DNA from: a virus
Taxonomy: Duplodnaviria; Heunggongvirae; Uroviricota; Caudoviricetes
DNA: 36,503 bases
IMG/VR virus record: IMGVR_UViG_2713896908_000012
Span: 1-36,503 of that record
Direction: 5' to 3' (one strand)
How positions within the stretch are numbered: the first letter of the stretch is position 1; every line of letters starts with the position of its first letter. Made by a program: the position numbers and the translations under genes. Under the pieces are notes generated by a model, which saw only the letters and a program-made list of their open reading frames with translations, was not told where the DNA came from and searched no databases. Positions 23,727-25,091 of the stretch are shown here, piece after piece.

Positions 23727-23912
23727 TTAAATAAAAGTAGAGGAAATAATTAACACACCGACAACCGCCGCAATTAAAGCTCTAATCACAAACAAATTTT
23801 TAATAAGCCTGAAAGGATTTTCCCACAAAATAAATGCAATCACTCCAAATGCAGAAACAACAAAAGTAATATCTAATGCCAGGATTTTGATTAACGCCAC
23901 AACACTTACCAC
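23727..23912 (-). CDS. Small two-helix membrane protein (hypothetical)
   Basis: GTG start at 23912 preceded by AGGAGG (5-nt spacing); 61 aa with two hydrophobic helices ([30 protein letters not shown] / LFVIRALIAAVVGVLIISS); AT-rich. Confidence 0.4.
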   Translation of the reverse strand: MVSVVALIKILALDITFVVSAFGVIAFILWENPFRLIKNLFVIRALIAAVVGVLIISSTFI

Positions 23913-24379
23913 GTAACCTCCTGAAAAGTTCCCCTCCAGAAAGCCAGCACGCGCTGCATAGTTTCGCTCTGACGGCACTCTCGGCAAATTATGTTCTGTC
24001 GCCTGTTGTAACGGCGTATTTCACCATCCGGTAATGAATAAATCAGGTCGGGGTCTCTCTTCTTTTTCGCTGTACCTTTCGACATTTTTTTGCAGGCTTT
24101 TATCCAGTCCTTACGCGCCTGCTCCGAAGGAAATATCCCGTGCCCCGAACCATATACTGCACCACTGACCACCAGCTCTTTCGCCAGAACTTCTATCAGG
24201 TGTCTGGTAGCTCCGGTTTCATCCTCCAGTTGCTTACGTGTTTTCCGCCCATCCCGCTGTACCAGCTCCACAATGCGCGCCTTCAGTTGCTTCCTGTATT
24301 CAGGTGTAAAAACGTTTCTCATAAGCGCCTCACTTTTCCGACACAACGCGACTGGAGGAATCGACAATCTGTCGGACAA
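23906..24379 (-). CDS. Hypothetical basic protein, possible DNA-binding
   Basis: 157-aa ORF (possible start at M20, 24322); lysine-rich segment and CRECRQ motif. Confidence 0.4.
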
Positions 24380-25091
24380 TATCCCTGTGTTTATTCAGCT
24401 CCCGCAGTGCGGCACAGACTCGCTCCCACTTCTGGACATGATTTTTCGCCCGGCGCAGTTCGCGGTTTGCCAGATGCAGCGATGGCAAAATCAGGTCATC
24501 GGCTTGTGTTTCGGTGAACGATGGCAGCGACTGCACAATGTCCGCCACAGTTCCTGTTTTAATTTCTTCCGGTATTGCAGCTTCCGGCGCTGGTAACGCA
24601 ACACCAGATGGCTGAGGAAAGGCTTTACCACCATTTCCCGTTACCGATGCGGCTTTCGGCTCTGCTGGTAAATTATCGTCCGGCATGCAGTAACGAAATT
24701 TACCGTTCTGATTTACACGAATCAGACGCCCTTTGCTGATTGCCATTGCCAGCGTTGAAGCTACTTTGCGTGATGTGGTACCGAACAACGTAGCCAGTTC
24801 ATCCGCCGTTTGTGGTCCGCGTTGTTCAATCGTCGCGGTTAAATCGCACTCTGAGATTTTCGCTACTGTTGCTGTGGTGGTTTCTTCCGGCAGTTCTGCC
24901 TGCGCTGGCTGTTCCTGCTGAACGTTGTTATCAGCCACACGCCAGGTGTACGCGCTTTTATCAACAAAACCAGCCTTTTTCAGTTCCCATAGTTCGTTCA
25001 GCACTTCTTCACGACTGACATCAAGTCGCGCAGCAAGTTCTATGGATGTGGCTTTTCCCATTGCTTTCAGTGCGTCAAAAACAGTCTCCAT
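24330..25091 (-). CDS. Hypothetical protein with two winged-helix-like segments
   Basis: Start at M18 (25091) with AGGAG ribosome-binding site; N-terminal [43 protein letters not shown] resembles a MarR/wHTH fold; second similar segment mid-protein. Confidence 0.45.

Follow-up and report, generated by a model that had tools for sequence, protein, structure and literature searches.

The three genes at positions 23727 to 25091 are best explained as accessory genes of an early-right phage operon, the last of which is carried by a mobile membrane-hairpin cassette, and we put the probability of this explanation as a whole at about 0.6. They lie in a window (the whole stretch of DNA that was analysed, 36,503 nucleotides) that is a Rac-like lambdoid prophage, most likely from Escherichia albertii. 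Judged from sequence, the hairpin is most likely an accessory inner-membrane factor that would be active early in lytic growth. The features on which the argument draws are the following.

18515-18874, lambda-S-type holin gene (Phage_holin_3_1)
19985-20527, Q-like gene
22126-22278, hok/sok (Rfam)
22400-23275, DUF551 gene
23405-23716, minus strand, downstream neighbour, 103-aa acidic Cys-containing protein (phrog_1372, E = 3e-54)
23717-23915, no strand, AT-rich replacement cassette of ~200 bp (blastn break points, GC)
23727-23912, minus strand, predicted two-helix inner-membrane hairpin protein, 61 aa, GTG start (family, AlphaFold2, hydropathy)
23917-23922, minus strand, Shine-Dalgarno sequence AGGAGG of the 61-aa gene, inside the last DUF977 codons
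23906-24322, minus strand, basic DUF977 protein, 138 aa, lambda Ren homologue by sequence (PF06163, phrog_142)
24330-25091, minus strand, DUF1627 (YdaW-like) protein, 253 aa (PF07789, phrog_630)
25114-25860, YdaV/DnaC-like replication gene

The original prediction had called three genes at these same positions, with a GTG start and an AGGAGG for the smallest; all three are on the minus strand, and the calls were confirmed by the sequence, by gene callers and by homologues. The cluster is bordered by the replication genes YdaU and YdaV on one side and by the DUF551 gene on the other, with the Q-like gene further downstream. This is the nin-equivalent region, and the predicted placement is thus borne out by the coordinates of the neighbours. 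The description of all three genes as uncharacterised holds for the 61-aa gene, which matches no Pfam, NCBIfam or PADLOC model, but not for the other two, which belong to the named families DUF1627/YdaW and DUF977. The order ydaU-ydaV-DUF1627-DUF977 is the same as in E. coli Rac-type prophages; on the other side of the cluster, the 103-aa gene, whose ATG stands 10 nt past the stop of the 61-aa gene in the junction sequence, shares ~90% nucleotide identity with its counterpart in E. coli Rac relatives. A simple consensus scan of the minus strand from 23200 to 25300, which weak or non-canonical promoters could escape, found no sigma-70-like promoter or terminator. It seems that the DUF1627, DUF977 and 61-aa genes would form the accessory part of an early-right (pR-type) operon, with a place behind the replication genes in the transcript and with reading frames that are closely packed and in part translationally coupled.

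The start of the 61-aa gene overlaps the DUF977 stop in the string GTGGTAA. The AGGAGG lies 4 nt upstream of the GTG, a short spacing, while the spacing in the relatives is 7 nt. An alternative 86-aa reading from a TTG was rejected, since the 25 codons that it adds run through DUF977 in a different frame, and the Shine-Dalgarno position, the lengths of the homologues and the existing gene calls all favour 61 aa. The 61-aa start coincides in the alignment with Met1 of every family member and was picked by independent gene callers on E. albertii contigs, and an identical protein is present in E. albertii assemblies. One could still suppose that the frame is a chance ORF in T-rich DNA which merely looks hydrophobic, because the coding strand of the cassette is 45% T and favours Phe, Leu, Ile and Val codons, because PGAP left the frame unannotated in E. 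coli E423, and because of the short spacing before the GTG. However, a 60-codon open frame was retained in only 1.8% of composition-matched shuffles, the ORF exactly fills its intergenic slot, and other family members have 46-47% GC and ATG starts. Three alleles of the ORF, differing at 19-21 nucleotide positions, are all intact, with solely conservative A/V/T/I changes in the protein. The dN/dS value against the closest alleles is 0.26, and in deep family pairs it is 0.05-0.2 in the annotated frame versus 0.6-4 in the other two frames. These comparisons show the 61-aa ORF to be a genuine gene under purifying selection; a conserved family of 39 clusters, reaching down to 37% identity and sharing invariant residues, with low dN/dS in this frame alone, removes the remaining doubt on its reality. 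The family analysis thus effectively refutes the chance-ORF reading, and we regard its probability as practically negligible.

When the 61-aa protein was first compared by word-indexed search, just two near-identical clusters appeared; a 64-aa relative then came from an exhaustive HMM search of 1.84 billion representatives, and the profile re-search extended the family to 39 clusters of 61-64 aa from prophages of Enterobacter, Salmonella and E. albertii. In the 39-cluster alignment, K9, I15, G23, F27, W30, N32, R35 and K38 are invariant, and the window's protein carries every one of them. The motif W-[QE]-N-P-F-R-x-I-K forms the loop between two hydrophobic helices. The 61-aa protein has no matches in Pfam, NCBIfam or PADLOC, and its PHROGs matches all have E > 0.05. 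The nearest catalogued phage family is probably phrog_1521, which was weakly matched by 22 of the 39 members (best E = 1.6e-5), although the window's protein does not match it at E <= 1; because phrog_1521 carries no annotation, it gives no functional information for the hairpin family. A tblastn search with one family member found no match in 50,697 GenBank phage genomes, a PLSDB search gave one phage-plasmid match, and of the pattern matches from two family-alignment scans of genome contigs none was confirmed by tblastn. By these comparisons the family is a small, previously unnamed group of predicted two-helix phage membrane proteins.

The original suggestion that the 61-aa protein is a two-helix membrane protein is upheld by both hydropathy and modeling. 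The Kyte-Doolittle profile (19-residue window) has two peaks above 2.2, GRAVY is 1.88, and AlphaFold2 predicts helices at 4-31 and 33-59 (pLDDT 75) with a break at P33, so the product would insert in the inner membrane as a helical hairpin. Its positive charge is concentrated in the loop W30-E-N-P-F-R-L-I-K38 plus R44, and by the positive-inside rule this distribution makes it most likely that the loop faces the cytoplasm and both termini the periplasm; the C-terminus reads ...ISSTFI. Foldseek searches of the model against viral structures gave generic helical hairpins alone (E > 2), so that the fold gives no functional information either. We rejected an identity as the lysis holin because the lysis cassette is ~5 kb away from the 61-aa gene and already includes a lambda-S-type holin.

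At every family locus the hairpin gene is on the early-gene strand and its start overlaps or directly abuts the upstream stop. Most loci have an SD-like GGAG upstream, and in most the downstream ATG overlaps the stop of the hairpin gene too. As read from these junctions, the hairpin gene is shown to be translationally coupled within an early phage operon at every family locus. The order DUF1627-DUF977-hairpin recurs in one Enterobacter lineage, where identity to the window's proteins is only 37% for the hairpin and 28% for DUF1627. Besides DUF977, which is linked in two lineages only, the family has no constant neighbour, and elsewhere the upstream gene is unrelated.

Comparison with E. coli Rac-type loci (L001-L003) delimits the hairpin gene as part of a replacement cassette, with blastn break points at 23716/23717 and 23915/23916. 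In the E. coli Rac relatives the same slot holds the gene of an unrelated 84-87-aa Cys-rich protein; another gene thus fills the slot, and the 61-aa gene is therefore dispensable. The local GC of the cassette is 0.31-0.39 against ~0.5 in the flanks, in agreement with the predicted AT-rich character of the ORF. The cassette is rare in E. coli, with one carrier among 5426 complete genomes, and blastn found no match for it among GenBank phages. The 13-nt string TTCAGGAGGTTAC at the window's Shine-Dalgarno site recurs at the junction that precedes distant family members in loci L029 and L030. The 61-aa gene is best read as a mobile cassette that brings its own Shine-Dalgarno sequence and stop/start overlap junction and has been set into different early-operon slots.

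The gene directly upstream encodes the basic protein that had been predicted at 138-157 aa, and it is confirmed at 138 aa with a pI of 10.06. Its ATG has GAGG ahead; the 157-aa reading from a TTG overlaps the DUF1627 gene and was rejected, as homologues and gene callers use the other start. The protein scores 92.5 bits against PF06163 (cut-off 22.1; profile positions 2-134 of 134) and matches phrog_142, 'Ren-like exclusion protein', with E = 9e-38 over profile positions 1-114 of 116, while lambda Ren itself reaches no Pfam model. BLASTP against lambda Ren gave 14/35 identical residues (40% over 35 aa; pairwise E = 8e-7), and the alignment reveals a C-terminal ECRQSxxMxRVLA motif common to both. 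The sequence begins with a wHTH, continues through a Lys-rich linker and ends in a C-terminal Ren-type motif. On these alignments the DUF977 protein is an enlarged lambda Ren homologue, the linker making it 42 residues longer. As with lambda ren, its gene comes after the replication genes of the pR operon, but here the DUF1627 gene stands in between. Older genetic work showed that Rex excludes lambda ren mutants, and RexB is a membrane protein; to our knowledge, no mechanism of Ren has been established over decades. Two-hybrid interactions of the Rex proteins with O and Ren have been described (bioRxiv 10.1101/2021.04.19.439022).

Because the hairpin gene is coupled inside a repressor-controlled early-right operon, the gene ought to be off in the lysogen, and its position in the operon suggests that the product would be made early after induction or infection. 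This gene anatomy, as far as sequence can tell, argues against the classical superinfection-exclusion and toxin forms of the earlier suggestion for a small membrane protein at this site. As a tentative best guess, which may well prove wrong, the hairpin would belong to the class of proteins that protect the productively infected cell at the membrane. The invariant interfacial loop would serve to bind a defined partner in or near the membrane and not to form a non-specific pore, and the infected cell would be protected either by a T4 Imm-like block of DNA entry or by blunting of a membrane-acting host response. T4 Imm, a small protein of the inner membrane, is made early and keeps the DNA of superinfecting phage from entering. 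The hairpin resembles it in being a short, very hydrophobic protein of the inner membrane from an early lytic transcript, its timing being taken from the operon position; however, the two have no sequence relation (at E <= 1, Pfam and PHROGs searches gave no Imm model for any of the 39 family members), and the phage that carries the hairpin is temperate, unlike T4. A bolder version, which we rate a long shot, is that the hairpin represents a new early-lytic membrane effector class that would exclude secondary phages in the latent period or neutralise an abortive-infection effector acting at the membrane, the DUF977-linked forms being the membrane arm of a Ren-type counter-defence module with two parts.

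If the 61-aa protein were instead made in the lysogen, it could block the injection of incoming phage DNA, as P22 SieA and HK97 gp15 do. It is a small prophage-encoded inner-membrane protein whose gene is accessory and swappable like a moron and has a GC content below its flanks, as many morons do. But lambdoid exclusion genes are as a rule active in the prophage state, whereas this gene lies inside the repressed early-right operon, coupled to its upstream gene and with no flanking promoter or terminator in the simple consensus scan, which may miss some. In addition, none of the 39 members matches SieB, RexB, Imm or Cor-type models (Pfam, PHROGs, E <= 1), and the 61-aa protein has no PADLOC match at E <= 0.1, which also counts against prophage-expressed exclusion, so that we consider such a role quite unlikely. 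A membrane-damaging toxin or host-killing factor, which would oligomerise and depolarise or permeabilise the inner membrane in the manner of Hok/TisB or a pinholin, is likewise unlikely. The GRAVY value and the two transmembrane helices do resemble those of a class II holin such as S21 (~60-70 aa, two transmembrane helices), the small-residue faces G16/A20/G23/S26 found in most members could support helix packing, and truncated variants (P0037, P0040) exist in some assemblies. Yet the conserved element of the family, unlike that of class II holins, is the inter-helix loop, and conservation that is strongest in a polar motif fits specific binding better than a pore. The protein also lacks the charged C-terminal tail typical of holins, Pfam and PHROGs searches with all 39 members gave no holin, HOK_GEF or type I toxin match, and many genomes keep the gene intact with no apparent antidote; with Rfam at gathering thresholds, sok and RalA were detected in other parts of the window, but 23700-23950 gave no match.

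The link with DUF977 raises another reading, in which the Ren homologue and the coupled hairpin would jointly escape a RexAB-type membrane-acting abortive infection. It draws on the Rex exclusion of ren mutants, the Rex-Ren two-hybrid signal and the membrane location of RexB, and also on gene order, since the hairpin follows DUF977 with a stop/start overlap in two lineages that are ~40% identical. Moreover, the unrelated upstream genes in L029 and L030 end in ...QEVTQ via the same 13 nt as the 3' end of the window's DUF977 gene, which suggests that the cassette once travelled with that end. Most family loci, however, have no DUF977 neighbour, most E. coli DUF977 genes are followed by a different gene, and the Enterobacter DUF977 protein is an 86-aa wHTH without the Ren-like C-terminal motif. 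A joint function of this kind is therefore very unlikely in our estimate. Shielding a productively infected cell at its membrane is still our best, though tentative, guess for what the hairpin does.

Small hydrophobic phage ORFs are routinely left unannotated, and here such an ORF proves to be a conserved, selected and mobile gene with a sharply defined motif. The W-x-N-P-F-R-x-I-K hairpin gene is a concrete and cheap target for expression and challenge assays. If the hairpin had no detectable effect, the finding would be three ordinary accessory genes. Since the hairpin gene shares a coupled unit with homologues of lambda Ren and YdaW, the locus may be a convenient entry point for asking whether such lambdoid early-operon regions are counter-defence or host-takeover clusters.

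The YdaW homologue is the first gene of this unit. Its ATG has AGGAGA ahead, and the 253-aa product passes the gathering threshold of PF07789 (DUF1627; 308.8 bits, cut-off 28.1) and matches phrog_630 with E = 5e-126. Its 2363 homologues (244-257 aa) are called 'DUF1627 domain-containing protein' wherever the source names them, and E. coli proteins with a DUF1627 annotation share 84-97% identity with it. The tandem winged-helix-like segments that had been predicted are supported at low confidence, by sub-threshold HTH/wHTH Pfam matches at residues 1-48 and 84-130, by AlphaFold2 secondary structure (H-H-H at 4-39, H-H-H-strand-strand at 81-135, helix at 203-252; mean pLDDT 54), and by local Foldseek matches of this low-confidence model to Lrp/AsnC, Z-alpha and DeoR DNA-binding domains in the PDB, all with E > 0.1. 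A PDB sequence search with the DUF1627 and DUF977 proteins gave nothing below E = 0.08. In the predicted layout, two wHTH-like domains, the first of them N-terminal, are followed by a disordered linker and a long helix at the C-terminus, which is a probable coiled coil. YdaW of the E. coli K-12 Rac prophage occupies the same slot directly after ydaV, and the window's protein is a strong DUF1627 match; unlike K-12 ydaW, which we take to be a truncated remnant, the window's gene is full length. The one functional hint for ydaW comes from a screen in which, when overexpressed, it acted as a 'blocker' of the retron-Sen2 toxin RcaT (bioRxiv 10.1101/2020.06.22.160242).

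Comparison with close alleles and distant relatives shows that the 61-aa gene (23727-23912, minus strand) is protein-coding, conserved and under selection. The alleles of E. coli E423 and of another close locus (L005) differ from the window at 19 to 21 positions with the frame open, and the amino acid changes are all of the A/V/T/I/P/L type (dN/dS about 0.26). A word-indexed protein search found no relatives beyond near-identical ones; an exhaustive HMM search of 1.84 billion representatives returned one 64-aa protein (E = 4e-7), and a profile search seeded with this relative gathered 39 clusters of 61 to 64 aa from Enterobacter, Salmonella, and E. 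albertii. In the family alignment, K9, I15, G23, F27, W30, N32, R35, and K38 are invariant, the motif W-[QE]-N-P-F-R-x-I-K-P sits exactly between both hydrophobic segments, and the 61-aa start codon aligns with the family Met1, GTG starts also occurring in several Enterobacter members. For deep pairs (Salmonella versus Enterobacter, and between Enterobacter lineages), dN/dS was 0.05 to 0.2 in the annotated frame and 0.6 to 4 in the other two. The cassette is AT-rich as originally predicted (31 to 39% GC versus about 50% around it), a composition in which a chance ORF might be suspected; however, at 46 to 47% GC the other family members show that AT-rich DNA does not account for the hydrophobic reading, and we regard a chance ORF as extremely improbable.

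The product consists of two hydrophobic helices and an invariant polar loop joining them. Its hydrophobic, two-segment nature was confirmed by a GRAVY of 1.88 and by a hydropathy profile (19-residue window) that rises above 2.2 at two peaks, and AF2 with the family alignment placed helices at 4-31 and 33-59 (pLDDT 75). Foldseek of this model retrieved generic hairpins only, PADLOC and NCBIfam searches with the 61-aa protein were empty, and 22 of the 39 members gave weak matches to phrog_1521, which lacks an annotated function. Small hydrophobic accessory genes are familiar from phage early regions; this family is new, nameless, and absent from Pfam, NCBIfam, and PADLOC.

The window covers the greater part of a Rac-like lambdoid prophage, with best nucleotide matches to E. 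coli Rac-type prophages (82 to 92% identity) and exact protein matches in Escherichia albertii assemblies. Pfam and Rfam gave the following layout.

Main features of the prophage
35268-36503, integrase
34769-34947, minus strand, RalA antitoxin sRNA (Rfam 202.8 bits)
33459-34511, RecT, adjoining the RalA sRNA
30301-33447, RecE
27498-27917, plus strand, cI-like repressor
25114-25860, minus strand, DnaC-like YdaV, early-right operon
24330-25091, minus strand, 253-aa DUF1627 protein
23906-24322, minus strand, 138-aa DUF977 protein
23727-23912, minus strand, 61-aa hairpin protein
23405-23716, minus strand, 103-aa acidic protein (pI 4.4, 5 Cys, phrog_1372)
19985-20527, minus strand, Q-like DUF1133 gene, early-right operon
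18515-18874, lambda-S-type holin, after the Q-like gene and followed by structural genes

The early-right operon occupies the minus strand and runs cro-like, YdaT, YdaU, YdaV, the DUF1627, DUF977, and 61-aa genes, the 103-aa gene, DUF551, hok/sok, DUF1367, YbcO, and the Q-like DUF1133 gene. This order puts the three genes between YdaV and the DUF551/Q-like genes and therefore in the nin-equivalent region, where the original prediction had placed them. The RalA sRNA with RecT and RecE adjacent corresponds to the Rac-type RalR/RalA module. The hok/sok type I toxin-antitoxin locus within the nin region (21973-22278, minus strand) comprises a sok match (Rfam 119 bits, 22126-22278) and a Hok-like ORF with a 60-aa GTG reading (21973-22155), related loci having 51-aa HOK_GEF products. 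A 179-aa DUF2441 ORF on the opposite, plus strand (19093-19632) occupies the slot between the Q-like gene and the holin, a typical moron position.

All three predicted ORFs were recovered at their coordinates. The coding-strand junctions are ...CCAGGAGAAAAATTTAATG (253-aa gene), GTGAGGCGCTTATG (138-aa gene), and TTTTCAGGAGGTTACGTGGTAA (61-aa gene). In the last of these, the GTG overlaps the upstream TAA; 10 nt past the 61-aa TAA comes the ATG of the 103-aa gene. Longer readings of 270, 157, and 86 aa were rejected, as they overlap upstream genes and neither the homologues nor independent gene callers use them.

The 61-aa ORF is a swapped-in cassette. By blastn against three E. coli Rac-type relatives, 23300-23716 and 23916-25200 align at 84 to 92% identity and the gap between them is unaligned. 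In these relatives the slot holds an unrelated soluble 84- to 87-aa protein, rac21 (L002 2904-3167, L003 1909-2163, and L001 3410-3664), which has a CPFCG motif, no Pfam match, and a 4-nt overlap that likewise couples it to DUF977. rac21 ends in a CPFCGESLKTWENRNE motif. Among Rac-type prophages the 103-aa gene stays about 90% identical in nucleotide sequence, regardless of the cassette upstream of it. The window cassette occurs in 1 of 5,426 complete E. coli genomes (E423, 89% identity), where PGAP left the ORF unannotated, and was not found in GenBank phages; the protein is widespread in E. albertii, the identical sequence being indexed in 63 blocks of the collection. In E423 (L004 2706-3017), an internal stop makes the downstream 103-aa gene a pseudogene beside the intact hairpin ORF, and the DUF977 gene stops five codons early because AGGAGG is changed to AGTAGG. 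The same 13 nt, TTCAGGAGGTTAC, directly precede the hairpin starts in the window (23913-23925) and in the loci L029/L030 (about 3982-3994), whose hairpin genes are about 45% identical. They encode the end ...FQEVTW of the window DUF977 and ...IQEVTQ of the unrelated L029/L030 upstream protein, so that unrelated proteins end in ...QEVT[W/Q]. The cassette seems to carry its own ribosome-binding site and the last codons of whichever gene is upstream, and the shared 13 nt look like a scar of transfer along with a DUF977 3' end.

In every locus examined, the hairpin gene lies on the early-gene strand. The overlap between its start and the upstream stop reads ATGA, GTGA, or GTGGTAA (in phage-plasmid loci the upstream stop ends one base before the ATG), and in most loci the ATG of the next gene overlaps the hairpin stop. 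Enterobacter lambdoid prophages and five 33- to 49-kb IMG/VR contigs have the gene in the nin region, with DnaB-type replication genes on one side and NinB/RusA on the other. Another Enterobacter lineage, whose replication genes are of either the lambda-P or the DnaC type, has it directly 3' of DUF1627-DUF977 (hairpin 37% and DUF1627 protein 28% identical to the window). In Salmonella it lies near Ead/Ea22 and integrase, which we read as an early-left-type region, and a 46.6-kb phage-plasmid whose replication gene is N15-like also carries it. The gene is mobile, is dispensable in that relatives carry another gene in its slot, and is embedded in phage early operons through translational coupling.

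The original prediction called all three genes uncharacterised, which holds for the 61-aa ORF, without a match in Pfam, NCBIfam, or PADLOC; the other two belong to known families, DUF1627 and DUF977/Ren. The 253-aa protein (DUF1627, Pfam 308.8 bits; phrog_630, E = 5e-126) corresponds to Rac ydaW in full-length form, and its homologues number more than 2,300. Many wHTH families, among them ArsR, MarR, TrmB, and FeoC, matched its residues 1-48 and 84-130 below threshold. An AF2 model from a shallow alignment (mean pLDDT 54) has H-H-H at 4-39 (pLDDT about 80), H-H-H-strand-strand at 81-135 (about 60), disorder at 136-200, and a long helix at 203-252; Foldseek found local matches only, to Lrp/AsnC, Z-alpha, and DeoR DNA-binding domains (E > 0.1). 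Because of these sub-threshold, low-pLDDT, and E > 0.1 values, the predicted tandem winged-helix-like segments are reasonable but weakly supported. Sequence search of the PDB detected no solved structure for DUF1627 or DUF977. In the searchable literature, the sole hint at a function comes from a screen in which overexpressed K-12 ydaW scored as a blocker of the retron-Sen2 toxin RcaT (bioRxiv 10.1101/2020.06.22.160242).

The 138-aa protein (DUF977, Pfam 92.5 bits) is basic as predicted (pI 10.06), and profile methods assigned DUF977 a winged-helix fold (Kinch et al., PMC2686095). It matches PHROG 142, "Ren-like exclusion protein", end to end (E = 9e-38) and lambda Ren directly at 40% identity across the C-terminal 35 residues, 16 window residues pairing with KECRQSAAMKRVLAVY. 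A multiple alignment shows it to be Ren plus a Lys-rich insertion, and Ren has the same operon position in lambda. A recent preprint describes Ren as "likely involved in DNA replication" and reports that Rex proteins are two-hybrid-positive with O and Ren (bioRxiv 10.1101/2021.04.19.439022). The Enterobacter DUF977 upstream of a hairpin gene (L025/L027 4744-5004) is an 86-aa wHTH protein without the Ren-like C-terminal ECRQS...RVLA motif; its 26% identity over 46 aa to the second DUF1627 wHTH hints at a domain common to both families.

For the function of the hairpin, we tentatively favor, at a probability of about 0.35, an early-lytic membrane-protective role, in which it would block the entry of a second phage or damp a membrane-acting host response. 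A membrane toxin would suit a small hydrophobic product, yet none of the 39 members matched Pfam or PHROG models of holins, Hok/Gef, or other type I toxins; Rfam found nothing at the locus while detecting the genuine sok and RalA elsewhere in the window, and the prophage has its own, separate holin. We consider a toxin unlikely. Exclusion by a protein expressed from the prophage, in line with the original suggestion of superinfection exclusion, appears less likely still: no member matched Pfam or PHROG models of T4 Imm, SieB, or RexB, a simple consensus scan of the minus strand (23200-25300) found no promoter-like or terminator-like site, and the hairpin would probably be made after induction or infection only, not in the lysogen. 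That it is an obligate partner of the Ren-like protein draws on the DUF977 linkage, apart from which the loci share no neighbor; the Salmonella and phage-plasmid contexts are of other kinds, and we hold such a partnership to be improbable. Similarly speculative is the broader idea of a new early-lytic membrane effector family, which might serve as the membrane arm of a counter-defence module of the Ren type. The hairpin loop would face the cytoplasm and both termini the periplasm by the positive-inside rule, with R35, K38, and R44 in or after the loop and an acidic or neutral N terminus. Since the conserved positions cluster at the loop and interfacial residues, the hairpin would more likely bind a specific partner than form a non-specific pore.
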